From the IMG/VR virus record IMGVR_UViG_3300034103_000446, positions 1 through 64,000 of that record: a stretch of DNA of 64,000 bases. One strand, written 5' to 3'. A model generated the notes under the pieces. The model was not told the DNA's origin and searched no databases. It saw nothing but the letters and a program-made list of their open reading frames with translations. A program made the translations under genes and the position numbers. Positions 6,510 through 56,259 of this stretch are shown here, in pieces; position 1 is the first letter of the stretch, and every line of letters starts with the position of its first letter. Source of the stretch: a virus.

Positions 6510-6805
6510 TTAAATTTCAATTCAAAAAATGTTATTTGTTCGGGTGTTAGGTCTGCTCTTATTTGAAACTTATACCCATATGTCATCGCATCAAGCTGCT
6601 TATACCAGGTTGGTTTAGTAATTGCATTTTTCATTACCCATTGACCTGGTTCACTACGTTCCCAGTCAAAGATAGGACCGCCTGCATAGATATCAGGATC
6701 ATCTACGTCACTTAACGAAAATGTATGAACAACATAACTACTTGTTATGATGTCCTTACCGTCATCAAACTGCCATATTCGCTTTAATTTGTCCATGGCT
6801 CTCAT
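6506..6805 (-). CDS. Hypothetical phage protein
   Basis: Coupled to both neighbours; ends FFELKFK; start uncertain. Confidence 0.55.
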   Translation of the reverse strand: MRAMDKLKRIWQFDDGKDIITSSYVVHTFSLSDVDDPDIYAGGPIFDWERSEPGQWVMKNAITKPTWYKQLDAMTYGYKFQIRADLTPEQITFFELKFK

Positions 6806-16040: not shown

Positions 16041-16048
16041 TATTTATA
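16041..16048 (-). promoter_or_regulatory. T4 late promoter TATAAATA
   Basis: Exact consensus a few nt upstream of the ATG at 16033. Confidence 0.55.
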
Positions 16049-19389: not shown

Positions 19390-19998
19390 TTATACTCCGC
19401 CACAATATTTTTCAGGATCAGGCATGCCTAAACATTTCCTACGGTCATATTTGTAATCTTTGTATTTACCGAATTTATCCACATAGAACAAGAACGCTTG
19501 TAATTGTCTCTCACCCAGGTATTCATTTCTCCAATGGGGTAAAACACTCCCTTTATAAACAATAAGATCACCGGGATTTAATAAAATAGGAAATCTATTT
19601 CCTTTTAAATCATCAAACCAAATTTCCCAAGGCTCAGGGTCTATTGAAATATTAATAGTCGTAGCAAATTCACAACCTGGTCTGTCTTTGTGTTCTGCCA
19701 TTGTAGCACCGTTGTAATATATTCTAGCATAGCTAAAACTACTATATAATTGTTTGCCAATTACTTTTTCCATTAATGGTAGTAATTTGATACTCAGTGC
19801 TTCAACACATGGAGGGGCATACCTGGAATAAGAATTAGTAACTTGTCCATCTGAAAATATAAATTTATTTTCTTCATCTTGTTTGTTTTTGGCGTAAGTT
19901 ACTTTTTTCAATAACTCCATTTCTATGTCTACAAGTTCTAACACTTCAGGATGTAATGCACCCCTAATAATTTCATAATGATTGTCTTGAAATGACAT
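19390..19998 (-). CDS. 2OG-Fe(II) oxygenase-like protein
   Basis: YARIY, HKDRPGCE, PGDLIVYKG and HWR motifs. Confidence 0.8.
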   Translation of the reverse strand: MSFQDNHYEIIRGALHPEVLELVDIEMELLKKVTYAKNKQDEENKFIFSDGQVTNSYSRYAPPCVEALSIKLLPLMEKVIGKQLYSSFSYARIYYNGATMAEHKDRPGCEFATTINISIDPEPWEIWFDDLKGNRFPILLNPGDLIVYKGSVLPHWRNEYLGERQLQAFLFYVDKFGKYKDYKYDRRKCLGMPDPEKYCGGV

Positions 19999-20013
19999 TT
20001 TTTTTCCTAAATT

Positions 20014-20340
20014 AGGGTAGGTTATTCTGTTACGAGGAAACCTACCGAAACCCTAAGCGGCCGCTTAGGCTGCTAAAGCGAACTGTTCGTCGTTTGCATT
20101 TACGTTTTTTGCTTCTTCGACCAGGTTACCCCAATCCTAACGGCTTCTACATTGCCGGACTGTCCATTTCAATACTCTTGACCCAATCGATCCTGTGTCA
20201 GGCCCATCAAAAACATACTAACCGCTCTGTTGCTACTGTATGCCTACAGTTTGTATCCATTCGTCTAATATGCTTATGGTGGACCTGGCGGGCACTGCCC
20301 CCGCGTCTTGAATCCTTTTCTGTCTACTTCATACAGTCTT
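20014..20340 (-). ncRNA. ssrA: Two-piece (circularly permuted) tmRNA, alphaproteobacterial type
   Basis: The acceptor piece ends CAGGUCC-A-CCA at 20277 and pairs with GGGCCUG starting at 20205, including G3:U70. T-loop is GGCAGUG. Tag at 20097-20065 encodes (A)ANDEQFALAA*. AACAGAA lies at 20025-20031. Outer ends are approximate. Confidence 0.93.
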
Positions 20341-20345
20341 AACTT

Positions 20346-20570
20346 TTATCTACACACCTGTCTATGTTGATACACAGGACGATGATAGATATCATACCCA
20401 ATCACTCTTTTGGTAGAGTGACATTGCAACGGTCTTGGTGCAGGTTGTGAGTATACTGAACCCATAACTGCGGCGCCGATTATTGCACCGGTCAATGCCG
20501 CGTTTTGTTGAGGTGTAGCACACCCAACAAGACTACCCAAAATAACAACAGCACCAATAAAACGTTTCAT
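20346..20570 (-). CDS. Small glycine-zipper lipoprotein
   Basis: Lipobox LVGC followed by GAIIGAAVMG. Confidence 0.7.
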   Translation of the reverse strand: MKRFIGAVVILGSLVGCATPQQNAALTGAIIGAAVMGSVYSQPAPRPLQCHSTKRVIGYDIYHRPVYQHRQVCR

Positions 20571-20719: not shown

Positions 20720-21751
20720 TCAAATTTCATAGTCCCTACATGATTTGAGGTTTTCATAGTCATCTATCAAGTGTCGATCCAAAATATTCCCGGTATCTTC
20801 ATACCAATCGATGGCTTCTACTGCTATTTTTGGATACAATGATTTATCATAGGCCAATGCCCTTGCATGTTTCTTATTGAATGCAACTTTGTTGGCTATT
20901 TGCATTCGCAATATATACAAATCCTGCTTGTTTACTTTTATAAGTTTTTTGAAGTTTTCTAACAACATCTCATAACGTTTTTCTTCATCGGGTTCGTCAT
21001 CAAACGAATAGTCAAATAGTTCCTCGTACAGTTCAAACCCTAAATTTTTTAAGAATTTATGATAGTGCATCTGACTTGCTACCAGAAAGGGCTTACCTAG
21101 TAACAAAGGAATAGCAGTCTTTTCAGTTAGAATAATTGTATTCCCGGAACTCTCACTTATCAATTGTGCAAATGATTCATAGTACTGATCTACTATTCTA
21201 TATTGATTTTTATCCTCTGCAAACTCAGATTCTAGTATCAATGGTCTACCGTCAAAATATCTATAGGTGTACATTACAGGGGTACCATGCATTGACACTG
21301 CTCCATGTTCTAACAGATTGTTTTTAGCTAACAAATCTATCAATAAACACCTATGAGCATGTGGCCGGTTGTTCATCGATATGTAATGGTATTTGTAGTC
21401 TACATGTTCATATGGGTCTATTGATAATTTTTTCCCTTCATTGCTATTGAATAGAGCTCCTAATGTTTTACCTATCCAATATGTACTCCACCAGGAAACC
21501 TCAGTGTTTTCAACTCGTGTAGGGTAATGCAACTCAGCAGAACCTGATATGACATATAATGGTTGATTCCTACTTTTACAAAAAGAAAGTAGGTTGTTAA
21601 ATAATTCAGGTTGTGCATGCCATTCCCATTCATTCTGGCAAAATAAAATTACCTTGTCATAGTATCCAGAAACAACTTTGTTATAAAAATTAGCAAAGTT
21701 TAGGCCGTCCCATTGATTGTGTCCTATATAGTTAGATACATTACCACTCAT
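20720..21751 (-). CDS. GT10/exostosin-like putative glycosyltransferase
   Basis: LISES...LTEKT..PLLLGKPFLV...LGFELYEELFDYSFD motif; tandem paralog of the next gene. Confidence 0.6.
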   Translation of the reverse strand: MSGNVSNYIGHNQWDGLNFANFYNKVVSGYYDKVILFCQNEWEWHAQPELFNNLLSFCKSRNQPLYVISGSAELHYPTRVENTEVSWWSTYWIGKTLGALFNSNEGKKLSIDPYEHVDYKYHYISMNNRPHAHRCLLIDLLAKNNLLEHGAVSMHGTPVMYTYRYFDGRPLILESEFAEDKNQYRIVDQYYESFAQLISESSGNTIILTEKTAIPLLLGKPFLVASQMHYHKFLKNLGFELYEELFDYSFDDEPDEEKRYEMLLENFKKLIKVNKQDLYILRMQIANKVAFNKKHARALAYDKSLYPKIAVEAIDWYEDTGNILDRHLIDDYENLKSCRDYEI

Positions 21752-22799
21752 AGAATTGCAACATTTCTTCTTCATTATGTAATGAGCAAAGAAGGTGATC
21801 TACTTCTTCGCCTGTCTTAGTATAGTGAGCTAATATTTCTTTTACAAGGTCAGGTTTAAGGTTTCGATCATAAACTATTTCTCTTACCCTATTTTTATTG
21901 TGTAGTAGTTTATCAGAAATCTTATGTGTTATAAATGGTAACTCAGACAACGGAATCTCACATAGTCGTTTGTAATTGTCAACTAGCATTTCATATCTGA
22001 TATCTTCATCCGTAACATCATCAAACGAATAGTTAAAGATTTCATCATATAATACAAAACCTAAATCAACTAACATCTTATGATATCCCTGTCTTGATGC
22101 AACTAAAAAAGGCTTTCCTGCACATAAAGGCATGATTGTTTTTTCACTTATAAAATAGGATCTATCTGTAGTTTCACTAACTAACTGACAAAATGCTTTT
22201 TTATGTACATCGGTGACTGCAAACATTTGCGAGTGTGAATTTACTGTGAACTTTTCATGGTCGACCTCTAGAGGTGTAAAGTTAAAGTGTTTCCAGTTAT
22301 ATGTTCTCCAAGCTTCTTGTGCATAGCCAGAATACACTTCACTATCATGTATAGAAACTTTGCCGTGCTTCAATATATTATGTTTTGCCAATTGATCTAT
22401 AACCCTACAACGATGAGACTTTGGTCTGTGATTAAAATTAAAATAATGATGTGTGTACTCAGCAGGACCAAGAGGATTGATAAAGATACCAGTGCTGTTG
22501 CTTCGTATGGCATTAGTGTATGTTCTGCTAAACCAAGCTGTAGCCCAATATGTCACTACTATATTGTCAATCTGAACTGGGAAATCTTTTTCAGCAGCAC
22601 CAACGATAACATGTATGGGCCTACCTATGCTCTTGCAATGTTCTTGCAACAACTTCCAATGTATTGGTTCGTGGTTGTACCATTCCCATTCATTTTGACA
22701 GAATATTATTATCTTATCCCATTCCTCATTGAGCACACGATGATAAAATTCTATGAATTTATTATCCCCGGACCATTGATTGTGCGTGATATATTTCAT
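21741..22799 (-). CDS. GT10/exostosin-like putative glycosyltransferase
   Basis: LVSET...ISEKTIMP...KPFLV...LGF motif; shares FCQNEWEW with its neighbour. Confidence 0.6.
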   Translation of the reverse strand: MKYITHNQWSGDNKFIEFYHRVLNEEWDKIIIFCQNEWEWYNHEPIHWKLLQEHCKSIGRPIHVIVGAAEKDFPVQIDNIVVTYWATAWFSRTYTNAIRSNSTGIFINPLGPAEYTHHYFNFNHRPKSHRCRVIDQLAKHNILKHGKVSIHDSEVYSGYAQEAWRTYNWKHFNFTPLEVDHEKFTVNSHSQMFAVTDVHKKAFCQLVSETTDRSYFISEKTIMPLCAGKPFLVASRQGYHKMLVDLGFVLYDEIFNYSFDDVTDEDIRYEMLVDNYKRLCEIPLSELPFITHKISDKLLHNKNRVREIVYDRNLKPDLVKEILAHYTKTGEEVDHLLCSLHNEEEMLQFYEW

Positions 22800-25700
22800 T
22801 TGTTAAATCTTTCTCGGAGCCATGCCCACTCATAACTTAATTTTAGTTTGTCTGTCTTGCCATCTACTTCATTGTAATAGTCAATACCGTCTTTGGCTCC
22901 GTCAAGTGAACTCTGTGCAAACTCGCCGGTTGCCTTAGTCAGCCACACTTCTAAGCGGCTGTTGCTAATTTCAGAATCTTCTTTCTTCAATTTGATTACT
23001 TCACGGAATGCAGTACGCCATGTCGACCATTCATCAATATTGTATGTTGCTATACCAGACAATAATTCAATAGTCTCATGCGGACTATCAAGTGTAAAGT
23101 CTAGTCCATATCCTAAGTTATCTAATGTCATTTGCTTGTTGTACGCAATCATGCCCTGATGACCATATATCAAACCATTCACAGGATTCTTAGCTAAGAA
23201 CATATAGTGCTTTGGTATCTGCAATCTATCTGGTTGCCAGTTGAAGTCAAATTTAGTGTTGACTTTCAGTTTAGCAAACACAGTAAACATCCAAGGGGTG
23301 TTGCTTGCTTCTGCTGCCGCATGATATGCTTCAACACGACCATTAACTCCATCTACACGAACAATTCTGTTAGGTAGGCCCTTTGTAGCTTTCAATAGAT
23401 GTTCATAGTTCTCATCCGCACATGCCTCACCGTTACTCAAGAATACGATATCTAATGGGTTACTCTTGGCTAATCGTGATGCAGTCTTGATGTATGGATA
23501 GTCGTACAACTGTGTCTCAACATATTGCTTTGCTTCTTTAGGAACAACAATGCGTGTGCCACCGGTACTAGTAATCAATATGTTCTTTGACTCAATATCC
23601 CACAAGTTCATTGGTTCTTCTTCTACTACTACAATGTCTTTGTTGTCGCTTGTTACAAAAGTTGCATAGGGGAAATCAAAGTCCTGCATTACCGTAGCAA
23701 CATGGCTATCAAAATCAGAAACAATAACAGGAGCTGCCAATCGTTTGGTACGTTGATGCTGATTAAAATTAATCTTGTCATAATCTTTCAATGACTCCAT
23801 GTCCTTTATCAACTCACGTAACTTGTTCACATTGACCAAGAATGTGTCACCAAACTTTTGCTTGTCACTTGGGAATACATGCAACTGCTCTCTAGCAAAT
23901 GGATCACATATGTAAGTGAAGTCAAAACTCTCATAATCACATACTGTGCTTGCTATCCAAATGTAATGTTCTTTCTTCTCAGGAAGTTTAGATATTATAT
24001 TCTTAAAGGTAGTTAGGTAATCAGTATCATAAGGTACAACATTTGCTAAAGGTAAGTTAGGTGTGTTACCGTGATCAATATAGTACACATCGTACAATAC
24101 GTTAGTGGCTTTAGCAGTTCTATCCTTAATAAAGTTAAGGTTGCTCAAATGCTCAATAATCTTGATGTATTTTGTATCAGCAGAAAATGTGTCACGATTA
24201 ACTATAAAGGTTGTACCCCAATGACTCCACTGAGTACCAAACACATGAACCATCTTCATCTGCCAGGGGTTAGGATAGTAGTTGAAATCAAAGTCAGTGT
24301 AATCTAATTCGCTATTCAATATCCAGCACAATTCTGTGGTACTACGATTGATACAACGATTGATAGTATCAACCCAGCTGTTTAGATAACGAGTCTTTTG
24401 AATGTTACCAAATTTAATCTTCAATTCTTCATATCTGTGTGCTGATTCTGGGTTGCCTCTATCAACAAAGAACATGTCTGGTTTGATAAACAACCTAGAC
24501 AAGTAGCCTTCATTCAATGACGCATCTTCTACAAACTTTAAATCTTTCTTACCATCTAGATAAGACCTAGCGTTTACAAAATATGTATGAGTAGTTACTG
24601 AGTCCGGTGATCCAAACACGTGTACGTAGTCAGATTCCCATGCAACATTGATAACTTCTGGTCTCCAATCAAAGTCGAAACCAGTGTAGTCGATGTTCTT
24701 ATTCAATGCCCAGAATACTTCAGAAGAATGTTGATTAATCAAATCTTCTAAAGTAGTTTCGATGTAGTATTCAGGAACAACAACCTGATCAGGGATAGAG
24801 GTTGCTAATTCATTTTCATATGGTTTAGTTATACGTAACTTATATACAATCTCTCCAGTATGACCCGGTGTAACATACTTAGGACCATCCTTATCATCTA
24901 CCATAGTACCAAACTGATACACATACGGTGGTGCTAATTCATCAGGATGCCAGCTAAAGTCAAAATCATTTACAGCAACACCATTGGGGATGACCCAGTT
25001 AGTCTTGTCCTCTTTGCGTTTTGCTCGGATATCATCAACATACTTTATATCAGTTGCTCCGAAAACTTCGTATCTAGGTCCATTTGTCTTTTGATGCTGT
25101 GTGCCAAACTGATAGATGTATGGAGGATCGTTTGGATTAGGGATCCAACTAAAATCAAAACTTTCGGCTTGTATGTTCTTAGGTACTACCCAATTTTTTC
25201 TATTAGGGCTTAGTATTGCAACAATATCTGTCACATATTTTGTTTGCACTGCTCCGGGAACCTTGTATTCAATAGTAGGCATAATTTCAGCAGAATATTG
25301 TTTGTTGCCGAAACGATATATGTATGGTTTCTCAGTGTCATCTGGGTGCCAGCTGTAGTCAAAATCTTTGATATCGTGTTCTATCAATGTAGTGAAATTT
25401 TTCTTATCTTTCAAATGGATAGATTTGATATCACTGCAATACTTAACTGGGGTGTCGCTAGTAGCGCCTTCAGGCACATAGCGAGGGCCACCTGTCTTTT
25501 GCCATTGAGTACCAAACTGATAAATGAATAGTTCATCAGTGTCGTCTGGGTGCCATGAGAAATCAAACACCGATGAGTTTATACTAGGTGGAACAAACCA
25601 ATGCTTCTTAGAAGCTACTGACTTTGCAGTAGATTCTTCTACATATTTTACTTCAGTTGCACCTGATACAGTGTACTTTGGTCCACCTGTCTTTTGATGT

Positions 25701-28700
25701 TGTGTACCAAACTGATAGATATAGGGAGGGTCATTTGGATTTGGTTTCCAACTAAAGTCAAACTGACTTACATCTATTTTGCTCGGTACATCCCATCCAG
25801 TAAGGTCGGTAGCAAGTGTTGCCTTCACATCATTGACATACTTTATCTTTTCAGCATAAGGACTTGAACGATATTCAATCGTAGGCATCACTTCTGCAGG
25901 ATACTGTGTGTTACCAAACACATAGATGAATTCACCGTCAGTGTCATCAGGATGCCATGACCAATCAAACGATGCAACTGATAAGTTGTTTAATACATTA
26001 AATTTACTCTTAGTAGGTAATTTCTTTGATGTGATAACACGAGTATCAATGTACTTGACTGGTGCGCTTCTTTTTGCGCCCGGAGTAACATACCGAGGTC
26101 CGCCTGTCTTCTGCCACTGTGTACCGAACTGATAGATATACGGATCGTCTTCTGCATAAGGGTGCCATGAGAAATCGAAATCAGATTCATCAATGTCAAC
26201 CGGAACTTCCCAGTTAGTTTTGTTAGGCAACGCTTTTGCACTAGGTGAATCCATGTACTTAGTTGCAATTGCGCCATCCATCTTGTATACAGGTCCACCA
26301 CTCAATGCCCATTGAGTAGCAAAATGATAGTTGTACGGAGGGCTAGTACTGTCAGGATGCCAGCTAAAGTCAAAATCAGTTACATCAATGTTCTCAGGTA
26401 ATGTCCACTTGTCATGATCCGGCAATGCTTTTACTTTTTGTGTGGTGACATACTTGACTTCGGTGGCATCGGGAACGATATATCGAGGTCCACCTGTCTT
26501 CTGCCATTGTGTACTGAATTCGTATATGAACGCAGGATCTTTTGGATTGGGTTTCCAACTAAAGTCAAAGCCAGTTGTATCTACACTAGCAGGCACTTCC
26601 CAGTTAGTCATATCAACATCAAGTACAGCAATAACATCAGACACATATTTGATTTGTTTTGCACCCGGAACTTTGTATTCTACAGTAGGCATTATCTCAG
26701 CAGGATGCTGAGTGTTGCCGAACACATAGATATATGGCTCATCGGTTTCATCCGGATGCCACGACCAATCAAACTCTTTAATCTTATAGTTATTGAGTAT
26801 TGCAAAGTTTTTCTTATTCGGTAATCTTTTAGATTTTAAAATACGAGTATCTATATACTTTACAGGGCTAGAAGGAATAACGCCCGGTGTTACATACTTT
26901 GGTCCGCCTGTCTTCTGCCACTGTGTACCGAACTGATAGATGTAGGGCTGATCTTCTACATACGGATGCCATGAGAAATCAAAGTCACTAACATCAACAT
27001 GTTCAGGTACTTCCCAATTGTCTTTGTTCTCCAACGCAATAGCACTTGGTTCTTCCAAGTACTTAGTTTCAACAGCGCCGGGTACAGTGTATATCGGTCC
27101 ACCTGTCAATGCCCATTGAGTAGCAAAGTGATATATGTATGCAGGACTTGTATCATCTGGATGCCAACTAAAATCAAATCCAGTCACATCAATATGAGTA
27201 GGAATAGTCCAGTTGTTCTGATTAGGTAACGCTTTTACTTTTTGAGTTGACACATACTTAACTTCATCAGCACCGGGTACTACGTATCTAGGTCCACCTG
27301 TTTTCTGCCATTGTGTACCGAACTGATAAATGAACGCAGGATCTTTTGGATTAGGTTTCCAGCTAAAGTCAAAATCTGTAGTGTCAATATCATCAGGTAC
27401 TTCCCAGTTAGTCATATCAACATCAAGTACCGCCATGATATTGTTGACATACTTGATTTGCTTTGCGCCAGGAACCACGTATTCTATGGTAGGCATTATT
27501 TCAGCAGGATGTTGATTATTACCAAATACATATATGTAGGGCTCATCAGTTTCATCTGGATGCCAGGTGAAGTCAAACTCTTTAATCTTGTAGTTGTTTA
27601 ATATTGCAAAGTTTTTCTTACTTGGCTTTCTAATAGCCTTTAAAATACGAGTGTCGATATACTTGACAGGACTAGAAGGAATCACTCCAGGTGTTATATA
27701 CTTCGGTCCACCTGTCTTTTGATGTTGTGTGCCGAACTGGTACACATATGGTTGATCTTCTACATATGGATGCCAGCTAAAGTCAAAACTATCTGCATCA
27801 ATCTCATTCGGTACTTTCCAGTTGTCTTTGTTCTCTAACGCAATAGCACTTGGTTCTTCTAAGTACTTTGTCTCGGATGCGCCTGGTACTGTGTACACCG
27901 GTCCGCCAGTCAATGCCCACTGAGTGGCAAAGTGATAGATATAGGGAGGACTTGTATCGTCAGGGTGCCAACTAAAATCAAAGTCAGTAGTATCTACGTA
28001 GCTAGGTACTGTCCAATTATCCTTAGTAGGTAGTGCGGTTACTTGATGTGTTGACACATACTTAACTTCATCGGCGTCAGGTACTACATAACGAGGGCCG
28101 CCTGTCTTTTGATGCTGTGTGCCAAATTGATAAATGAATGCCGGGTCTTTGGGATTAGGTCTCCAACTGAAATCAAAGGTAGATGTATCTGTATTGTCAG
28201 GCACTTCCCAGTTAGTCATATCAACGTCAAGTACAGCAATAACATCAGACACATACTTTATCTGTGTTGCACCAGGTACTACGTACTCAATAGTAGGCAT
28301 AATCTCGGCTGGATGCTGGTTATTACCGAATACATATATGTACGGCTCATCTGTGTCATCTGGATGCCATGACCAATCAAAATCTTTGATTTTGTAATTG
28401 TTTAATATTGCAAAATTCTTCTTGCTAGGTTTTCTGATAGATCGTATGATACGAGTATCAATATACTTAACTGGACTAGAAGGCAGTGATCCAGGGGTTA
28501 AATATCTAGGACCACCTGTCTTTTGATGTTGAGTACCAAACTGATAGATGTAGGGCTGATCTTCTACATATGGATGCCATGAGAAATCAAATGCATCACT
28601 GTCTATATAAGATGGAATTTCCCAATTGTCTTTATTTGGTAATGCGATAGCACTAGGCTCATCTAAGTATTTTGTTTCAACAGCATCAGGACAAGTATAT

Positions 28701-30949
28701 ATCGGTCCACCTGTTAATGCCCACTGAGTAGCAAAGTGATAGATATACGGCGGGCTTGTTCTGTCTGGATGCCATGAGAAATCAAAACCAGTCACATCAC
28801 AATTAACGGGAATAGTCCAGTTACTGTCTGAAACTAATGCTTTTACTTTTTGTGAGTCAACATACTTAACTTCAAATGCGTCCTGCACAATATAACGAGG
28901 ACCGCCTGTTTTCTGCCATTGAGTACCAAACTCATATATAAATGCCGGCTCTTTTGGATTGGGTTTCCAACTAAAGTCAAAACCATCACAATCAATATCG
29001 TCAGGTACTTCCCAGTTAGTCATATCAACATCTAAGGTTGCTATAACATTGTTAACATACTTGATTTGTTTTGCGCCGGGCATTGAGTATTCAATGGTAG
29101 GCATAATTTCTGCTGGATATAGATTGTTTCCAAATACATAGATATATGGCTCATCAGTATCATCTGGATGCCATGACCAATCAAAGTCTTTGATTTTGTA
29201 GTTGTTTAATATTGCAAAGTTTTTCTTATTTGATAGGCGCTTTGCTTTTATAACACGAGTGTCAATATATTTAATAGCACTATTCTTATGAATCCCGGGC
29301 GTTTTATAAATCGGGCCGCCTGTCTTCTGATGCTGTGTACCGAACTGATAAATGTAGGGCTCGTCCTGCGCATATGGATGCCATGAGAAATCAAATGCAT
29401 CACTGTCAATATAATCAGGTACTTCCCAATTGTCTTTATTTGGTAGTGCAATAGCACTTGGATGTTCAACATACTTAATTTCTGTTGCACCTTCCATGTG
29501 GTATATAGGGCCACCAGTTAATGCCCATTGGGTAGCAAAATGATATGTGTATGATGGACTAGTGCTATCAGGATGCCAACTAAAATCAAAGCCAGTTACA
29601 TCACAATTAGTAGGAATAGTCCATCCGTCGGTATTGGCCAATGCTTTGACTTTTTGAAATTCTATGTACTTAACTTCCGTTGCACCTTCGACTACATAAC
29701 GAGGTCCACCTGTTTTCTGCCATTGAGTGCCAAACTCGTATATAAATGCAGGGTCTGCTGGGCTAGGTTCCCAACTAAAATCAAAGCCAGTCGTGTCTAC
29801 ATTAGCAGGCACTTCCCAATTGTCCATGCATGGTTTGCGCTTTGATCTAGCTTCCATGAACTTGTATTCTGTAGCACCTTCTACTACATACTGAATACTA
29901 ACTTTATCTTCAGGCTTGTTCCATTGATTACCCCATGCATAAATGTATGGAGGGGCAGTTGGATTAGGTACCCAACTATAATCAATGCTGTCAGCTTTCT
30001 CTAAATGCTCAAACTTTTCTGCATGGGCGCTTAACTTAGCTTTCATATCATGCAGGTATTTTCTTTCAGTAGCATTTGGCATGTGATACTCAATTGTCGG
30101 CATCACTCCGGCTTCGTATTGCTCATTACCAAATACATATATGAAGTCAGGTTCTCTAGGATCAGGTCTCCAGCAGAAATCAAAAGTTGTTTTATCTACA
30201 TCATGTATGATATCCCACTGATCCCATTCAGGCAACACCGGAACAAGTTCATTCATGTATTTCTTTTCAGTTGCTCCCGGTACATGATATTCTAGTGTTG
30301 CTTTCAGCTTACCATCTACATATTTGTTACCCCATACATATATGAATGGAGGATCCATTGGATCAGGTCTCCAACTCATATCCCATCGGATCCTGTCTAC
30401 TTTTTGAACCTCAACGATGCTATTCCAATTAGGCAATAACTCTACTATAGTGTTCATGTATTTTATATCAGTTGCTCCTGGCACGTGATATTCTAAACAG
30501 GTGCTTAATTCTGCAGGTGCATACTTAGAACCCCATCTATAAATGAATGGAGGGTCTGTTGGATCAGGATGCCAACTAAAGTCCCACTTTTCTACGTTGA
30601 TGTTTTCTAGTATCTTCCAATTGTCAGATACTATGTTCTTTCTTTTGAGAGGCTCAACATCACACCGATACACAATAACATCACTCTTGTTATTTGCGCA
30701 CAGCCACGTGCCGCTATCTTTTTGATGGAGACTAGGCCACACATTGTTGTGATCTTCTGCCCAAACATCACTGTCAGGTAAAAACTCAAAATCAAAATCC
30801 CAATCAAAGTTAGTATAGTCACAGAATTCGTTGATGATCCAAAAGTGTTCTGTTGTTGCTTTTTTTCTAGCGTCTACTAAATTTTTAGCAGGTTGTTCTT
30901 TTGGATGGACATTCGGCTTAGTGCCGAAATAAAAAACATCTCTTAGCAT
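22796..30949 (-). CDS. Giant (2717 aa) tandem-repeat protein with C-terminal GT-A-like domain
   Basis: ~30 repeats of FDFSWHP..PYIY.FG; the C-terminal domain is homologous to 55306..56259. Confidence 0.85.
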   Translation of the reverse strand: MLRDVFYFGTKPNVHPKEQPAKNLVDARKKATTEHFWIINEFCDYTNFDWDFDFEFLPDSDVWAEDHNNVWPSLHQKDSGTWLCANNKSDVIVYRCDVEPLKRKNIVSDNWKILENINVEKWDFSWHPDPTDPPFIYRWGSKYAPAELSTCLEYHVPGATDIKYMNTIVELLPNWNSIVEVQKVDRIRWDMSWRPDPMDPPFIYVWGNKYVDGKLKATLEYHVPGATEKKYMNELVPVLPEWDQWDIIHDVDKTTFDFCWRPDPREPDFIYVFGNEQYEAGVMPTIEYHMPNATERKYLHDMKAKLSAHAEKFEHLEKADSIDYSWVPNPTAPPYIYAWGNQWNKPEDKVSIQYVVEGATEYKFMEARSKRKPCMDNWEVPANVDTTGFDFSWEPSPADPAFIYEFGTQWQKTGGPRYVVEGATEVKYIEFQKVKALANTDGWTIPTNCDVTGFDFSWHPDSTSPSYTYHFATQWALTGGPIYHMEGATEIKYVEHPSAIALPNKDNWEVPDYIDSDAFDFSWHPYAQDEPYIYQFGTQHQKTGGPIYKTPGIHKNSAIKYIDTRVIKAKRLSNKKNFAILNNYKIKDFDWSWHPDDTDEPYIYVFGNNLYPAEIMPTIEYSMPGAKQIKYVNNVIATLDVDMTNWEVPDDIDCDGFDFSWKPNPKEPAFIYEFGTQWQKTGGPRYIVQDAFEVKYVDSQKVKALVSDSNWTIPVNCDVTGFDFSWHPDRTSPPYIYHFATQWALTGGPIYTCPDAVETKYLDEPSAIALPNKDNWEIPSYIDSDAFDFSWHPYVEDQPYIYQFGTQHQKTGGPRYLTPGSLPSSPVKYIDTRIIRSIRKPSKKNFAILNNYKIKDFDWSWHPDDTDEPYIYVFGNNQHPAEIMPTIEYVVPGATQIKYVSDVIAVLDVDMTNWEVPDNTDTSTFDFSWRPNPKDPAFIYQFGTQHQKTGGPRYVVPDADEVKYVSTHQVTALPTKDNWTVPSYVDTTDFDFSWHPDDTSPPYIYHFATQWALTGGPVYTVPGASETKYLEEPSAIALENKDNWKVPNEIDADSFDFSWHPYVEDQPYVYQFGTQHQKTGGPKYITPGVIPSSPVKYIDTRILKAIRKPSKKNFAILNNYKIKEFDFTWHPDETDEPYIYVFGNNQHPAEIMPTIEYVVPGAKQIKYVNNIMAVLDVDMTNWEVPDDIDTTDFDFSWKPNPKDPAFIYQFGTQWQKTGGPRYVVPGADEVKYVSTQKVKALPNQNNWTIPTHIDVTGFDFSWHPDDTSPAYIYHFATQWALTGGPIYTVPGAVETKYLEEPSAIALENKDNWEVPEHVDVSDFDFSWHPYVEDQPYIYQFGTQWQKTGGPKYVTPGVIPSSPVKYIDTRILKSKRLPNKKNFAILNNYKIKEFDWSWHPDETDEPYIYVFGNTQHPAEIMPTVEYKVPGAKQIKYVSDVIAVLDVDMTNWEVPASVDTTGFDFSWKPNPKDPAFIYEFSTQWQKTGGPRYIVPDATEVKYVTTQKVKALPDHDKWTLPENIDVTDFDFSWHPDSTSPPYNYHFATQWALSGGPVYKMDGAIATKYMDSPSAKALPNKTNWEVPVDIDESDFDFSWHPYAEDDPYIYQFGTQWQKTGGPRYVTPGAKRSAPVKYIDTRVITSKKLPTKSKFNVLNNLSVASFDWSWHPDDTDGEFIYVFGNTQYPAEVMPTIEYRSSPYAEKIKYVNDVKATLATDLTGWDVPSKIDVSQFDFSWKPNPNDPPYIYQFGTQHQKTGGPKYTVSGATEVKYVEESTAKSVASKKHWFVPPSINSSVFDFSWHPDDTDELFIYQFGTQWQKTGGPRYVPEGATSDTPVKYCSDIKSIHLKDKKNFTTLIEHDIKDFDYSWHPDDTEKPYIYRFGNKQYSAEIMPTIEYKVPGAVQTKYVTDIVAILSPNRKNWVVPKNIQAESFDFSWIPNPNDPPYIYQFGTQHQKTNGPRYEVFGATDIKYVDDIRAKRKEDKTNWVIPNGVAVNDFDFSWHPDELAPPYVYQFGTMVDDKDGPKYVTPGHTGEIVYKLRITKPYENELATSIPDQVVVPEYYIETTLEDLINQHSSEVFWALNKNIDYTGFDFDWRPEVINVAWESDYVHVFGSPDSVTTHTYFVNARSYLDGKKDLKFVEDASLNEGYLSRLFIKPDMFFVDRGNPESAHRYEELKIKFGNIQKTRYLNSWVDTINRCINRSTTELCWILNSELDYTDFDFNYYPNPWQMKMVHVFGTQWSHWGTTFIVNRDTFSADTKYIKIIEHLSNLNFIKDRTAKATNVLYDVYYIDHGNTPNLPLANVVPYDTDYLTTFKNIISKLPEKKEHYIWIASTVCDYESFDFTYICDPFAREQLHVFPSDKQKFGDTFLVNVNKLRELIKDMESLKDYDKINFNQHQRTKRLAAPVIVSDFDSHVATVMQDFDFPYATFVTSDNKDIVVVEEEPMNLWDIESKNILITSTGGTRIVVPKEAKQYVETQLYDYPYIKTASRLAKSNPLDIVFLSNGEACADENYEHLLKATKGLPNRIVRVDGVNGRVEAYHAAAEASNTPWMFTVFAKLKVNTKFDFNWQPDRLQIPKHYMFLAKNPVNGLIYGHQGMIAYNKQMTLDNLGYGLDFTLDSPHETIELLSGIATYNIDEWSTWRTAFREVIKLKKEDSEISNSRLEVWLTKATGEFAQSSLDGAKDGIDYYNEVDGKTDKLKLSYEWAWLRERFNK
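25810..29830 (-). repeat. Five coding super-repeats of 804 bp (268 aa), each made of four ~67-aa subunits
   Basis: The anchor attgcaaa (NFAIL) lies at 26799, 27603, 28407 and 29211, exactly 804 bp apart; block ends are approximate. Confidence 0.9.
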
Positions 30950-32428
30950 TTATGATATCACTTTAACATTGTACAATTTTTCGAATCTATCGGCATCAAG
31001 TCTATCATTGACCATTGGCTCACCTCTGATATTAAGGGAGGTATTTAACAGTATAGGGCATCCAGTCAAGACATACCACTTTTCGAGTAGTTCTCTGACT
31101 CCGCTTCCATCTTTCGGCACAGTTTGAACACGACTAGTCCCGTCATGATGAACGATAGCAGGAAATAAGTCAGGATGCCTGCAACGAGCGATGACTTGCA
31201 TATACCTACTGTCACTCCAATTACGAGGCATGTCAAAATAATTATGAACATGCTCCTCCAAAATAATGGGCGCAAATGGTCTGAATTTTTGTCTGCGTTT
31301 AATTTCATTTACAGTATCCTTTATTGTATCACCTCTGGGGTCTGCAAGCAATGACCTATTACCCAATGCACGTGGACCGAACTCTGCACGACCTGAGGCT
31401 ACACCTACTATTTTAGTCTTAACTAGTTCGTCAATGATACGATTACTGGGATAATTGCCTGGAATGTCATGCCCTAAGAAAGCATCTACCCAGTTCAACT
31501 TCTTACCGTAGCCCAACGCAGCAGCACCTAAACTAGAACCACAGTCACCTGGATTAGGTACTATCCACATATCATTGAAGTAGTCACCTAAGTTTCTATT
31601 TGCTAGACAGTTAAGTGCGACTCCGCCTCCATATACTAAGTTGCGACTCTTGCCTAACATACGGGCTTTTGCCATGACGGTGTTAATTAGATATTCTACT
31701 AATGCCTGGGCACTGGCGGCAACGTCCATTTCATTAGCGCCTTCTAAAAAGTTTTCAGGGACACCAATGTGTAGGTTTTCTTTGAAATCTATTTTGGTGC
31801 TATTTTCTAACAACTTAGATTCAATGGTATTAAAATGTATAGGTTTACCGTACGCAGCCATACCCATTAGAATGTATTCTTCATCTAGTGGACGTAGACC
31901 AACGTGCTGAGTCATTGCACTATAATATAAACCAATACTGTGTGGATATTTTTTAGTCCAAAGTTTCTTGTATTGGGCATAGCCATTTTCATCGTACCAA
32001 GCATCCCATATAGAGATACAATCGATCTCACCGATAGCATCAATTACTACAACCGTAGCATCATTGTATGGACTTGTTTGAAAGCCGGCAGCGGCATGAC
32101 TTAAATGATGATTGTGTGTAACGACTTTTGGGTTGTTAAACACATCGAGAATAGATTTACCTATACGCATTTTAGCGGTACGTAAATCTAATTTTTGTCC
32201 TGCTCGTAATTGTCGTAATGCAGTCATCCAAGGACGTTCATAATAATGAATTTCACATTCATCAGTTAGAGTCTTGGCTGCGTCTATTGCCAATCCAGAG
32301 CATAATTCAGCGTCATGCTTTTGCTTGCTATAACGCTCACTATGACCTGCAAATAAAATGTTGCCATTCGAATCCACAACAGAGATACCGGCGTCATGGA
32401 AGCCGTTGCTTATTCCTACGTAGTTCAT
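30950..32428 (-). CDS. Carbamoyltransferase (NodU/CmcH/TobZ family)
   Basis: HDAG, ERYSK.KHD, HHLSHAA, GGVALNC, EFGPRALGNRS, FRPFAP, LLNTSLN. Confidence 0.95.
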   Translation of the reverse strand: MNYVGISNGFHDAGISVVDSNGNILFAGHSERYSKQKHDAELCSGLAIDAAKTLTDECEIHYYERPWMTALRQLRAGQKLDLRTAKMRIGKSILDVFNNPKVVTHNHHLSHAAAGFQTSPYNDATVVVIDAIGEIDCISIWDAWYDENGYAQYKKLWTKKYPHSIGLYYSAMTQHVGLRPLDEEYILMGMAAYGKPIHFNTIESKLLENSTKIDFKENLHIGVPENFLEGANEMDVAASAQALVEYLINTVMAKARMLGKSRNLVYGGGVALNCLANRNLGDYFNDMWIVPNPGDCGSSLGAAALGYGKKLNWVDAFLGHDIPGNYPSNRIIDELVKTKIVGVASGRAEFGPRALGNRSLLADPRGDTIKDTVNEIKRRQKFRPFAPIILEEHVHNYFDMPRNWSDSRYMQVIARCRHPDLFPAIVHHDGTSRVQTVPKDGSGVRELLEKWYVLTGCPILLNTSLNIRGEPMVNDRLDADRFEKLYNVKVIS

Positions 32429-32433
32429 TCAAA

Positions 32434-32532
32434 TCACTTGTAGATAAATGGGTCACGTTTACGTAGTTCTTTGATGCGTTTGCGATATTTGTATTCTTTG
32501 ACTAGGTTTTTGAAAAATCTGATTATAAACAT
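32434..32532 (-). CDS. 32-aa basic peptide directly upstream of the carbamoyltransferase
   Basis: Not in the track: MFIIRFFKNLVKEYKYRKRIKELRKRDPFIYK; SD aaggag. Confidence 0.65.
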   Translation of the reverse strand: MFIIRFFKNLVKEYKYRKRIKELRKRDPFIYK

Positions 32533-32562
32533 AGGAGCTCCTTAAATTCCTATGTATTTATA
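32530..32562 (-). promoter_or_regulatory. T4 late promoter TATAAATA plus a start-codon-sequestering hairpin
   Basis: TATAAATA at 32562-32555 followed by CATAGGA-atttaaggagc-TCCTATG. Confidence 0.6.
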
Positions 32563-32564
32563 AC

Positions 32565-34340
32565 TCAATACCTGTTAGGGCATTTTTCTAACAACGTTTT
32601 TCTGTTGTGTTCTAATATTGGCAACATTCTATTGTACATAATCTTGAGGTCGCTTATCGACATATTGTTGATTTGATCTATAATATCAAATATTGCAAAG
32701 AGCCTGGATTCATGATCTTCCAATGCATCATATGACTCATCCCAAAAATCACCAAACGTTTCAAAGCCTTGCTCTTTAAGATAATGCAATGTATGAGGAG
32801 GTGCTACTAACACAAACGGCTTCATATAGAACATAGGTCTATACACTTTTTCGCTATAGTTAGCAGTAGGCTGTGCGAACCTAGATTCATTTACAATGTC
32901 AACAAAAACATCTGCATATGCTGTTTTCAAACGGTCTTTATTGTCACCAAAACTCTGAGTTTTGTGATCAAATATCATTCCTGTAGGAAACATCTTTTTG
33001 AAATAACTATGAGAAATTAATGTGTGCTCTTTGACTTTTAAATCAATGTTCCACGGTGATTTAGAATTCAACTTGTTAAATCCAGTAATCATCTTTTGGA
33101 ATGTATTTGGATTCTTCTGTAACCAATGATGTATACTGTACCAGGGTTCTACACTGACTACACTCATGTCAGATTTAAAGTACCAGGTTAGATACGAATC
33201 TATTTCATAATTAGCCAAATACGCTGATACCAATTGACGATGTGGTGCATATCTCCAATTCATATTGATAAACTTTTTAGTAAAATCGCCGGTCTTAGTG
33301 TCGTCTAGTTGTTCAAATTCATTTATATCAAAAAACTTAACAAACAAATCATCTGCCTCAAGACGCATTTTTGATCTGTAATTTATGTAAAACTTTTGAA
33401 TATTATAGTCGCATGACTTGACAGTAACATTCTTTAATCCATTGTTATCAATGTATTTCTCGATGCTGTCTAGTTCAACTGCCCTTAAATCAAATTTACG
33501 CTGTACGTGGTCATAGTGAAACTCACTATAAAATAGCAATGAATGAACAGTACCATGAGGAGGATATTGCTGAGTATCGGTTGACCTGTAAGAACATAAC
33601 GGTTCATACAGATAAATCTCAACACCTGTTTCATTTAATTTTTGTACTGTCTCTGGATCGTGCTTGATGTTTTCTAATTCAGTAATTTCCCTATTATACA
33701 TGTAGATGTAGTAGGGTGTGGTTTTTTGCATAGCCTTATGCATATTAGCCATTATAGGTGCATCTAATGATTCTTTCTTAGTTTTTAGATCAGGAATGTT
33801 ATACCAATGCAAGCTAGAAATATCATCAAACGTAATCTTCGTACCTGTAATCTGTAATGTGTATCTGTCTTCTATGCCGATGTTACTAGCGGCATGTGAA
33901 ACATCACTGTCCCACATAAAATAGTCTCCGGCGACCCAATTAACCACTCCCACACCATCAATTTCTAAGTAATGTCCAGGTTGCCAATCTTCTAACATTA
34001 CCAATACTCTGACAACATTTTCATATTTTGCATCAAATAATTTCATGTATGTTTGAAAATGATCTACGTGTGTTGGCATAATTTCTAACTGTTGCATTTT
34101 GTAGAAATTATATGTCATGTTCTTTAGATCAAAAATGTTGTTAAATTGGTTGACCCACTCTGGCATAGGATTACGGTTATCATACATCGAGCCAGAAAAA
34201 CTTTTTACATAGTCATAACCTTTAGCTTTCCATTCTTCAAGTTCGCTATCCATTAATGGTTGTTTTACATATTCAAACTTCTTTACATCGTCAGTGTTCC
34301 AAAATCTACTTATGTGTCCTCTTGTCCATTTATTTGCCAT
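32565..34340 (-). CDS. Fusion: cupin/2OG-oxygenase-like N-terminus plus GT10-like domain
   Basis: N-terminal PTHVDH...SHAASN...RYTLQITG; C-terminal IVNES...SEKVYRP..MKPFVL...GFETF. Confidence 0.65.
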   Translation of the reverse strand: MANKWTRGHISRFWNTDDVKKFEYVKQPLMDSELEEWKAKGYDYVKSFSGSMYDNRNPMPEWVNQFNNIFDLKNMTYNFYKMQQLEIMPTHVDHFQTYMKLFDAKYENVVRVLVMLEDWQPGHYLEIDGVGVVNWVAGDYFMWDSDVSHAASNIGIEDRYTLQITGTKITFDDISSLHWYNIPDLKTKKESLDAPIMANMHKAMQKTTPYYIYMYNREITELENIKHDPETVQKLNETGVEIYLYEPLCSYRSTDTQQYPPHGTVHSLLFYSEFHYDHVQRKFDLRAVELDSIEKYIDNNGLKNVTVKSCDYNIQKFYINYRSKMRLEADDLFVKFFDINEFEQLDDTKTGDFTKKFINMNWRYAPHRQLVSAYLANYEIDSYLTWYFKSDMSVVSVEPWYSIHHWLQKNPNTFQKMITGFNKLNSKSPWNIDLKVKEHTLISHSYFKKMFPTGMIFDHKTQSFGDNKDRLKTAYADVFVDIVNESRFAQPTANYSEKVYRPMFYMKPFVLVAPPHTLHYLKEQGFETFGDFWDESYDALEDHESRLFAIFDIIDQINNMSISDLKIMYNRMLPILEHNRKTLLEKCPNRY

Positions 34341-53900: not shown

Positions 53901-55306
53901 TTAAATGGGTTCAGTTGGTTTGTTTCTTGGCACAGTCTGTAGAAGCCCAGCATCTCAGGGAACACTGATAGCATGTCTGCTTCTCGGCGCTCATCTAATT
54001 CATTGAACCAATTATAGAAGTCTCTGCGACCTTCGATTAGTTTTTCTTCAGGGTAAACAGTCTCAGCCATGTAATCTACTACACGCTTGAACTTTTCATA
54101 TTCTATTGAGCTAAATGCATCACTGCGTTTGTCATCAGTGTTAGCCTTCATATACTCCAATGCCTCATACATATAGGGCATGAATTCTTCTTTGGGAAGG
54201 ATGTTCATATCATATTGAATAGGATCACGTAGATATGGGGTATCAAAACGCACACGATGTTGTGGGTTGACCGGGTCATCATACCATCCGTATATCTTGC
54301 GCCACTCAATAAACTTCTCCAAGAAGCTTTTGAATGTAGTCACTGAGAAGATGTTGAACGTAATCATAAACGTGATCGGACTATCAGTTCCTTTAAGATA
54401 TGTGTGGAAGTTCTGTTCCCATAGCTCTAAATCTAAGCCTGTACGAATGTATTCAGCACGAGGGCCCCATGTATCTAGGCTAGTAAATAGTTTGAAACTT
54501 TTGATCTTGCCCTCGTCAGTAAGCTTTTTAACTTTCTCTGCAAGACGCTCAATAAGAATAGGCTTAGTACCTAAGTTACTGTTAATGTTCAACTCTAACC
54601 AGGGCATTGGATCTTCATCAATTTTTTCTAGCAATGTCCATGTTGAACGATGTAGTGTAGGTTCTCCACCGGTAACACGTAAGATGTTCAGTGTCTTGCG
54701 CATCTCAGGCCACCATTCCCAGAATGCATCAACATATGGGTTATCATCTTCACGTTGATACAATCGCATCCAATCTATATCACAACGATGGTTCTTAACT
54801 GATGTTACAGGGCCGTTTTGTTCAATCTCTTTGTAGAAGCTTGTGCTATACTTAGGGTGGCAGTAGCCGCACTTGAAGTTACATTCGTTACCGAAGTTGA
54901 TTTCGATGTACTCGGGGTTGATGTTTTGATTCCACGGACCCTTTGCTGTTTGTTCATATCGTTCATCAGTAAAGATACTTGCGTTACGAATGTGACGGTC
55001 ACTGATGTAATCCGGACCCATTGCCTCGATGTTCCAGCAATACTGACAACCAGTAGGCTTACCACCGTCAAGCATTAGTTTACGTTCTTCTTTCTTCTGC
55101 TGTGTGTTATGAAGTGCAGAAGGGTTATCATATAATTCTTCTAAAGGAATTTTATGAGGTTGAGGATGGTAACAACTATGAGTCTCTCCTGATTGCAAAT
55201 ACATTGTTACATGATGCCATTTAGCAAGGCAAAATGTAGGACCAGTCTCGTTTTCGATCTTAATCCTAATGTCTTTGATTCTTTTTTGTTCGTGACTCTC
55301 GCTCAT
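53897..55306 (-). CDS. Radical SAM protein with N-terminal twitch-like domain
   Basis: FCLAKW..SCYH..CQYC, CNFKCGYC, TGGEPT. Confidence 0.88.
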   Translation of the reverse strand: MSESHEQKRIKDIRIKIENETGPTFCLAKWHHVTMYLQSGETHSCYHPQPHKIPLEELYDNPSALHNTQQKKEERKLMLDGGKPTGCQYCWNIEAMGPDYISDRHIRNASIFTDERYEQTAKGPWNQNINPEYIEINFGNECNFKCGYCHPKYSTSFYKEIEQNGPVTSVKNHRCDIDWMRLYQREDDNPYVDAFWEWWPEMRKTLNILRVTGGEPTLHRSTWTLLEKIDEDPMPWLELNINSNLGTKPILIERLAEKVKKLTDEGKIKSFKLFTSLDTWGPRAEYIRTGLDLELWEQNFHTYLKGTDSPITFMITFNIFSVTTFKSFLEKFIEWRKIYGWYDDPVNPQHRVRFDTPYLRDPIQYDMNILPKEEFMPYMYEALEYMKANTDDKRSDAFSSIEYEKFKRVVDYMAETVYPEEKLIEGRRDFYNWFNELDERREADMLSVFPEMLGFYRLCQETNQLNPFK

Positions 55307-56259
55307 TACCATCCTTCAATTTTTCGAATTACTTCCATCTCGGTGACTAGAGGGCCTTGATTGTGATAATCAGATTGATAGTGACGTTTGAAGAACTTAC
55401 TTTGTTCAGGGCTTAATGTACACATAGGCAATCCTAATTTAGCATACAATGCTTCGCCAATCAACTCTGATTGTTTCATCGGATCTTTTAATTCATGTTC
55501 TTCCCATAACACTGGATAGTTATCAAACCATTGCACATTATGACAATCCCATTCAGTTAGCATCGTCATGTATGTTCCAAGACGAGCGCCATAGATAGCC
55601 CAGATACCGTTCTCAACATCTGCACCGACGTTCTGCCAAATAGTTAAGTTATTTAGATTGCGACTTGCAACCCGTTCTTTGAACTCAGTAGCATCCGGCT
55701 TCTCACCCTTGTCAAGAACCATCTTGACCCCTTCACGAAACCCTGCACGCCATGCTTGAAATGGTGTATGATTGGGATAGGTTGTGCTGTAGCAGTCATA
55801 CATCGCCCAGTACAAGTTGTCTTTACTATCTAAGCAGAAGTCAGCAATGCGTGAACTATCACCGTCTTTCTGTGCTTCATGCGTTTTCATGTTAGCAACA
55901 TAAGTCTTTGTCCAAGAACTCATACCACCATTACCATAACGCAACCCATTAATAGCATTGACTGCTTTCCAGCGAAATTGTGCTTTATAGTATGATGGAT
56001 CTCGGCCCGTGAAGTCAAGTTGCATATTGAAGAACGATTCGTCGGGCATGTTGTCCCCGTCAATCAATATGAATCGCTCAGTGTCGCTAGCGGCGCCGGC
56101 AGCTTTGTGGGCAGCATCAGAGCCTTTGACCCCGTCTACACGCTTGGCCCAAGGGACCATGTTCTTAATCTTTAGCCAGAATTCTTCTTTTTGTGGCTCG
56201 TCATAGCTTAGGTAGATGCAGTCCAAATCTGCTACATCAACAATATCATTTAAGCTCAT
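55306..56259 (-). CDS. GT-A-fold putative glycosyltransferase
   Basis: DCIYLSYDE, AAHKAA, FILIDGD (DxD), YGNGG and AWRAGFREGVKM. Confidence 0.65.
   Translation of the reverse strand: MSLNDIVDVADLDCIYLSYDEPQKEEFWLKIKNMVPWAKRVDGVKGSDAAHKAAGAASDTERFILIDGDNMPDESFFNMQLDFTGRDPSYYKAQFRWKAVNAINGLRYGNGGMSSWTKTYVANMKTHEAQKDGDSSRIADFCLDSKDNLYWAMYDCYSTTYPNHTPFQAWRAGFREGVKMVLDKGEKPDATEFKERVASRNLNNLTIWQNVGADVENGIWAIYGARLGTYMTMLTEWDCHNVQWFDNYPVLWEEHELKDPMKQSELIGEALYAKLGLPMCTLSPEQSKFFKRHYQSDYHNQGPLVTEMEVIRKIEGW

Follow-up and report, generated by a model that had tools for sequence, protein, structure and literature searches.

A giant gene in a 64,000-nt stretch of lake phage DNA (positions 1 to 64,000 of IMG/VR record IMGVR_UViG_3300034103_000446, hereafter the window) encodes a protein with 29 tandem repeat units, and our searches support the derivation of these units from a fragment of a module resembling glycosyltransferases (GTs) of the GT-A fold. 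The C-terminal half of a truncated mini-module of this kind was amplified in tandem to give the array, and in the lineage of the window a block of four units was then duplicated five times. The amplified half comprises the strand that bears the DxD motif in GT-A enzymes, an FDFxWxP loop and three β strands. The giant protein is a real, selected and soluble member of an unnamed, phage-dominated family with the GT-A fold.

The window is the first part of a 103-kb record from an uncultured phage. From the CheckV completeness of 29% the genome would measure roughly 350 kb, the size of a jumbo phage. Every long open reading frame (ORF) of the window lies on the minus strand. From the N- to the C-terminus the giant protein consists of a cap (M0), the 29 half-module units, three mini-modules (M1-M3), a β linker and an end domain with the GT-A fold, giving 34 module-derived segments in total. 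M0 starts with MLRDVFYF, contains W-I-I-N..DY..FDW and is strongly conserved across all complete relatives. The protein is predicted to be soluble, with neither a signal peptide nor a transmembrane segment found (top 19-residue Kyte-Doolittle mean 1.07). It is acidic (isoelectric point 5.0) with 15% aromatic residues, and the array has a net charge of -89. A DNA-binding role for the array was considered and rejected on account of this acidity.

Origin of the repeat unit

A repeat profile made from 156 units of 10 proteins was aligned with the modules of the giant protein using hhalign. The profile matched positions 53-113 of M2, that is its second half (99.2%, E 7.8e-20, 59 columns), and it also matched M0 (E 5.7e-13) and M3 (E 1e-6). 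M2 in turn aligned with the start of the end domain, over its first ~90 residues (95.2%, E 2.7e-8, 84 columns), whereas the repeat profile aligned directly with the end domain over 21 columns only (E 4.5e-5). With residues 2150-2717 as the query, HMMER gave the same picture in the phage's own genome, where 15 or more individual units were matched by M2 positions 55-114 (E 2.6e-7 to 4e-3). The mini-modules, of ~125 amino acids, are GT-A-like and truncated, and the second half of M2 is the nearest kin of the repeat unit. Taken together, the hhalign and HMMER matches trace a line of descent from a domain of the end-domain type to a truncated mini-module and from there to the half-module unit.

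An earlier first-pass annotation of the window had proposed the expansion of a GT subdomain, from a likeness of the repeat core to FDFNWQPD...HYMF in the protein's own C-terminal domain. This likeness is real, as the direct hhalign match shows, and is much stronger when traced through the mini-modules. The fragment origin stands on the hhalign, HMMER and structural searches; the unit descends immediately from the truncated mini-modules (M0-M3), of which it represents the second half, and not from the C-terminal domain.

Predicted structures, which the first-pass annotation had recommended for one ABCD block, were examined as well. The AlphaFold2 (AF2) model of two ABCD blocks (536 amino acids) is all-β, with a mean local confidence (pLDDT) of 92.6 and a global score (pTM) of 0.65; each unit has three main strands, the third being long and reaching near the boundary with the next unit. 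A Foldseek search of the array against the PDB gave nothing significant (best E 0.53), the known repeat and fibre families considered being the Ig-like, CROP or cell-wall-binding, β-helix and adenovirus or phage fibre types, and against BFVD it found only two uncharacterised homologues, both from uncultured phages. The VIA wide search, which is independent of Foldseek, gave no match with Z ≥5 for a 536-residue model that may under-score single-unit matches. Among its 21 weak matches (Z 2.0-3.2), however, 18 were GT-A or nucleotidyl-transferase folds by the class that we assigned from their entry titles, and each of them aligned to exactly one unit. This provides independent structural support for an origin from a GT-A fragment.

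The model of residues 2150-2717 (40-row alignment) is compact, with pLDDT 91.5 and pTM 0.82, and M2, M3, the linker and the end domain are predicted to form one compact head. Foldseek matched the head exclusively to GT-A transferases, namely K4CP (2z86, 2.5e-5), Mimivirus R699, LH3, SunS and WrtF. In VIA-align comparisons M2 reached Z 10.2 to nucleotide-binding domains of the MobA type (root-mean-square deviation 2.9, 128 residues aligned) and the end domain reached Z 9.4-10.0 to B4GALNT1, GnT-I, IspD and hyaluronan synthase. M2 and the end domain, as predicted, both have the Rossmann-like α/β/α architecture of the GT-A fold.

Sequence databases hold little for this family. The repeat, the mini-modules, the end domain and a stand-alone paralogue of the end domain are all without a family in Pfam, PHROGs and NCBIfam. 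No curated GT family, PF00535 (Glycos_transf_2) included, reached threshold, the best being Glyco_trans_1_3 at 12 against 25 bits; the ESM Atlas gave a 0.87 lead to PF00535 and nothing more. Searches of PDB sequences returned chance-level matches only, megablast of the neighbouring region found no match among cultured phages, and tblastn with the giant protein and a short-form relative found the stand-alone RsoM2USA gene only (5e-11 for the giant protein). A phmmer search with one ABCD block against 1.84 billion cluster representatives returned only 153 proteins, so the repeat is confined to the array family. A literature search found no account of the family. It is without a database model, yet widespread in lake metagenomes.

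When ten other family members were searched against Pfam, the only informative fused domain was that of one probable chimera. This is P0265, a 281-residue metagenome fragment in which two mini-module segments directly follow the mid-part (profile positions 119-209) of a thymidylate-synthase domain (Pfam E 5e-37). The junction lies at FGDQH and is probably due to chimeric assembly or to recombination at a shared word; if genuine, the fusion would tie the module to pyrimidine-modifying enzymes.

Array structure and its variation among relatives

A motif scan of the giant protein found 33 cores of the FDFxWxP type, 29 of them at a spacing of 65-70 residues. These 29 short units, where the first-pass annotation had counted about 30 repeats of ~67 residues, align as a single family with the consensus nW..p...d...FDfSWhP...d.pyIY.Fg....g(gp).Y..pga...KY. 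Units 5-24 form five ABCD blocks (65+65+70+68 = 268 residues), and a repeat search placed the block starts exactly 804 nt apart. The four-type cycle and its period had both been noticed in the first pass, and the signatures quoted there for the types are present in the alignment of units. Units 1-4 are D-like, and the array ends with a shorter A-x-D group and two further units. A search of the phage's own genome found the five blocks at 66-83% amino acid identity to block 3. Units of the same type (i, i+4) have a mean identity of 77% as against 39% for adjacent units. At the DNA level the block copies are 65-78% identical; Tandem Repeats Finder did not report the array because the period exceeds its 500-nt limit and the copies have diverged to this extent.

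Comparisons between blocks gave proportions of synonymous differences (pS) of 0.60-0.74 and of non-synonymous differences (pN) of 0.10-0.26, with dN/dS of 0.04-0.2. Synonymous sites are therefore near saturation, and together with the low dN/dS this indicates that the duplications are old and that each copy is under purifying selection. In four independent runs of lake water, contigs fill all 30 bins of 22000-31800, with a depth within the array that is broadly like that of the flanks and without well-supported deletion joints. Low-depth "joints" within the array in Logan contigs were examined as candidate deletions and rejected, with sides shorter than 31 letters and a depth of 3-8; we treat them as cross-matches of repeat copies or of related strains. 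The giant gene was found in runs of 18 studies. Among the sequencing runs listed for it there was no RNA run.

That the array is an assembly artefact, or decaying non-functional repeat DNA, is a negligible concern. The copy count does rest on metagenome assembly, with no single long read across the array. Against this, the 8.2-kb frame is intact, the divergence between blocks is mostly synonymous (as the first-pass annotation had also argued) and under constraint, all parts of the array recur in the four runs, and the same 29-unit layout is found in two independent IMG/VR contigs (L009 and L010).

Relatives are encoded at 18 IMG/VR loci. Complete ORFs, which start with an M0 of the MLRDVFYF type, carry 4 (L023), 5 (L026), 7 (L025), 11 (L018), 20-21 (L020 and L014), 23 (L011), 26 (L022) or 29 (L009 and L010) short units. 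Short forms of 538-898 residues have none, and their head is the same as that of the giant protein. Hence the comparison of copy number among related phages that had been suggested for the array gives a range of 4-29 in complete relatives and zero in the short forms. One further locus, L013 (IMGVR_UViG_3300016667_000073), has an 867-residue ORF that is closed in appearance but contains a run of N and begins within the array, and it was left out of the complete short forms.

The ABCD register is restricted to the window and to L009, L010 and L011. In the other relatives the units follow an AD two-unit, a three-unit or an irregular register. Between the window and L009 or L010 the outer units are orthologous one-to-one and the central units ambiguous. 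In L022, 21 of 26 units are nearer to a paralogue in the same protein (0.75-0.83) than to any unit of the window (0.5-0.66), which indicates that arrays expanded independently across lineages.

The end domain and its altered DxD position

Metagenomes yielded 1534 homologues of the end domain, 158-504 residues long, all unnamed and none with a Pfam domain, and the ESM Atlas clusters of the end domain are 100% viral. A stand-alone paralogue with an intact DxD is encoded 32 kb from the giant gene, and a scan of GTDB found homologues at 48 loci of bacteria or metagenome-assembled genomes (MAGs). Stand-alone homologues in Salinispora, Micromonospora, Streptomyces, Dongia, Parvibaculum and Bdellovibrionales read ADAD, ADGD, IDGD, VDAD or VDGD at the DxD position. 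Array-type and multi-module homologues read VFAK, VNAK, VFGK, VFPK or INAK at the same position, and a lysine stands there in all array-family members examined.

An alignment spanning the DxD and x-A-K subfamilies has 28 invariant columns, with the DxD itself replaced by x-A-K. As candidates for the catalytic base and an acidic residue on the acceptor side, the aspartate of L-D-F-T and the arginine and glutamate of WRxAFRE are invariant in both subfamilies. As the metal ligands are lost, a cationic residue is fixed and other invariant residues are kept, we infer that the GT-A pocket has probably been re-tooled rather than degraded. Metal-independent GT-A enzymes that rely on basic residues exist, and the x-A-K change suggests that a nucleotide-activated sugar is bound, or transferred, without a metal.

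The bacterial homologues offer a weak glycan hint. In Salinispora pacifica CNR114 (L032) the DxD-type homologue at 5755-6693 has a Glyco_tranf_2_4 protein and an FkbM-type methyltransferase as neighbours, and the ORFs around them have no Pfam match; this small actinomycete cluster of glycan type could be a tractable model for the family. Multi-module homologues of the x-A-K type (42-57% identical), together with one DxD paralogue, are also present on contigs assigned to a Haliscomenobacter MAG (L028, L029 and L073, including contigs of 183 and 148 kb), a Pacearchaeota MAG (L030) and a Fischerella MAG (L064). These are most likely mis-binned jumbo-phage contigs, and they give at best a weak hint of the host.

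Operon context, function and comparison with known systems

The giant gene is adjoined by the carbamoyltransferase gene in the window and in 9 of 11 related complete loci, and it is translationally coupled to it (10 of 12 loci). The operon is headed by a micro-ORF encoding 31-33 residues, which is present at 12 loci (the window, L009, L010, L011, L014, L015, L018, L020, L022, L023, L026 and L028), has a ribosome-binding site of the AAGGAG type and usually lies directly upstream of the carbamoyltransferase. Its C-terminus, YRKR[IL]KELRKRDPFIYK, is nearly invariant even among distant relatives. The DPFIY of the micro-ORF resembles the DP(P/A)(F/Y)IY strand of the repeat units. Given several radical SAM/SPASM genes nearby, the micro-ORF product could be a modified-peptide precursor, or else a small partner of the giant protein.

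Upstream of the micro-ORF stands TATAAATA, a putative late promoter. The word occurs twice in the 64 kb as against 7.7 copies expected, both being intergenic and on the gene strand, and in L009, L010 and L011 it is the sole copy in 13-21 kb, placed at -131 to -136 relative to where the carbamoyltransferase starts. Downstream of the giant gene, two genes share a domain (SE[ST]...[ST]EKT..P..GKPF) without a Pfam or PDB sequence match. It recurs in other cluster genes (32565-34340, 38214-41375 and 41435-42511), cross-matching the C-terminus of 32565-34340, the middle of the dehydrogenase fusion, and 41435-42511. Just downstream of the operon, ARAGORN predicts a permuted transfer-messenger RNA with the tag ANDEQFALAA (19974-20369, minus strand), putatively of the phage.

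Sugar enzymes flank the operon on both sides. Around it are a DegT aminotransferase, two B12-radical-SAM enzymes, a UDP-sugar dehydrogenase-methyltransferase fusion, an epimerase and several radical SAM/SPASM enzymes, and further sugar enzymes lie at 3-6.5 kb. A virion structural protein gene is located at 59.5-60.7 kb, on the same strand and a few tens of kb upstream.

Table 1. Features of the giant gene, its product and the surrounding operon (window coordinates)
Feature	Coordinates	Strand	Residues	Evidence or remark
Whole ORF, 2717 aa	22796..30949	-	1-2717	ATG start, no interruption
M0, N-terminal truncated GT-A-like mini-module	30623..30949	-	1-109	hhalign M0 vs M2, E 1e-22
Array, 29 tandem half-module units of 65-70 aa	24803..30622	-	110-2049	motif scan and alignment
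Five ABCD super-repeats, 268 aa = 804 nt each	25802..29821	-	377-1716	repeat spacing, own-genome search
M1, truncated mini-module	24494..24802	-	2050-2152	E 2.8e-10 to M2
M2, complete mini-module	24101..24493	-	2153-2283	hhalign, VIA, AF2
M3, mini-module	23744..24100	-	2284-2402	M2 vs M3, E 1.3e-27
β-rich linker domain	23468..23743	-	2403-2494	confident AF2 strands
C-terminal GT-A-fold domain, 223 aa	22799..23467	-	2495-2717	unnamed family
F2558-A2559-K2560 at the DxD position	23270..23278	-	2558-2560	alignment with paralogues and bacterial homologues
Two paralogous downstream genes, 352 and 351 aa, 40% identical	20720..22799	-		first ATG overlaps giant gene stop
NodU/Nol-type carbamoyltransferase	30950..32428	-		ends one base before giant gene ATG
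Micro-ORF, 32 aa, ends ..YRKRIKELRKRDPFIYK	32434..32532	-		operon head, conserved
TATAAATA, T4-type late-promoter consensus	32555..32562	-		upstream of micro-ORF
TATAAATA, second copy in the window	16041..16048	-		intergenic
Stand-alone 317-aa paralogue of C-terminal domain, intact I-D-G-D	55306..56259	-		BLASTP E 8e-7

The reading that we favour, while stopping a little short of calling it probable, is that of a late glycan-pathway protein in which a GT-A head is combined with an extensible β array serving as a rod or an acceptor track. The giant protein would be produced alongside a sugar carbamoyltransferase and two putative transferases, all from one late operon in a large sugar-tailoring cluster next to virion genes, and would most likely help to build or attach a carbamoylated glycan. 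Its head would bind, or transfer from, a nucleotide-activated sugar without metal. The acidic, aromatic-rich array is probably an extensible rod or track, which would either keep the conserved N-terminal cap at a distance from the head or carry an acceptor that is long, polymeric or bound to a particle, and its length would be an evolvable parameter. A bolder version, which we consider doubtful, takes the half-GT-A units as a new autonomous β-rod, a ruler or track of 0 to about 30 units with repeated independent expansion, that sets the reach of a metal-independent, lysine-based head, or determines how long a carbamoylated glycan this head builds on the surface of virion or host.

Several points weigh against the favoured reading. 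The DxD, by which most GT-A enzymes are defined, is absent from the end domain, the mini-modules and the repeat units alike, and catalysis may be lacking. The Z values of the head domains are tied, such that the fold search cannot separate glycosyltransferases from nucleotidyltransferases. The geometry between units is predicted with moderate confidence (the pTM of the two-block model) and the rod shape comes from the secondary-structure string. Finally, the promoter reading presupposes a T4-type late sigma factor.

Alternatively, the giant protein could be a virion fibre or decoration protein, with a variable-length β stalk and a GT-A-derived head acting as a lectin-like receptor or attachment domain and not as an enzyme. 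The loss of the DxD from all modules would fit this, as would the putative late promoter, the virion structural genes upstream on the same strand, the want of a transmembrane segment or signal peptide, and a copy number that shifts strongly among close relatives while the units stay under purifying selection, as in the stalks of adhesins and fibres. We nevertheless think it unlikely, as the gene is embedded in and coupled to biosynthetic genes and not tail or baseplate genes, the array-less short forms retain the same head, the family-invariant pocket residues are kept, and no known fibre fold was matched by Foldseek in the PDB or BFVD. Somewhat less likely again is a pseudo-enzyme scaffold, by which the DxD-less modules and the array would organise real enzymes (the 55306-56259 paralogue, the carbamoyltransferase and the downstream transferase-like pair) into an assembly line. 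Here the loss of the DxD from each module, the intact paralogue 32 kb away and the conserved coupling of the gene to partner enzymes are in favour, and there is a precedent in B3GLCT, where a GT-A copy that is inactive and lacks the DxD can be indispensable to the binding of the acceptor (PMC13597200). However, an invariant lysine placed exactly at the lost metal-ligand position, with other invariant residues kept, argues for re-tooling, and a scaffold leaves unexplained the need for 0 to 29 units in different relatives.

The first-pass annotation had also suggested that the four-unit register could mirror a repeating oligosaccharide, so that the array would read or measure a glycan with a tetrasaccharide repeat. 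The exact four-type period and a type-specific conservation over the blocks and the closest orthologues speak for it, but we regard it as very improbable. The register is confined to the closest clade, relatives with the same head have other registers, and the array edges are orthologous one-to-one while the centre is block-duplicated. Segmental duplication of a diverged four-unit block yields the same pattern and explains it more simply, and a lower identity between neighbours than between units four apart is also common in tandem-domain proteins.

Whichever function applies, the giant protein is a natural case of an enzyme sub-domain excised and amplified into a long structural array, and the whole domain, the truncated mini-modules and the half-modules, as the intermediate steps, are all kept in one polypeptide. 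Should the x-A-K head be active, GT-A chemistry would gain a metal-independent variant, and should the array set length, it would be a ruler in glycan synthesis that is not a coiled coil. The conserved late operon of micro-ORF, carbamoyltransferase and giant protein gives a handle on the making of complex glycans by jumbo phages.

Among known systems the giant protein can be compared with the stand-alone DxD family, which includes the window's own 55306-56259 paralogue and Ralstonia jumbo phage RsoM2USA_348 and consists of single-domain proteins of ~230-340 residues with the DxD kept. The C-terminal domain shares with them the motif series S..E, G..G..A, T, N..NGL.YG, K, D, WR.AFRE..K at 27-31% identity; in place of the intact DxD and the single-domain layout, the giant protein has x-A-K, an added FDFxWQPD..HY segment, three to four mini-modules and the array. 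Several GT-A-fold modules per chain, accessory or inactive ones among them, are likewise found in the K4 chondroitin polymerase of E. coli (2z86), human LH3 (6fxk), LARGE1 and B3GLCT, and proteins of this kind lead the Foldseek matches of the head. In contrast to the giant protein, these have two or three whole domains and no half-domain tandem array, and their identity to it is 7-12%.

The CROPs of clostridial toxins and the YG/cell-wall-binding repeats of glucansucrases are also aromatic- and glycine-rich short β repeats in long arrays on an enzyme of glycosyl-transfer type. The units here differ from them in length (65-70 and not 20-50 residues), in origin and in having no Pfam match, and the structural matches are at chance level (TcdA E 0.83, TcsH E 8.5). 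WbdD of E. coli O9a and WbbB of Raoultella/Klebsiella O12 are chain-length rulers of O-antigens that employ coiled coils and act at the membrane with an ABC transporter. The giant protein has a predicted all-β array of enzyme fragments with neither coiled coil nor membrane anchor. Its likeness to WbdD and WbbB is one of concept, namely a rigid spacer between functional ends whose length sets a dimension of the product.

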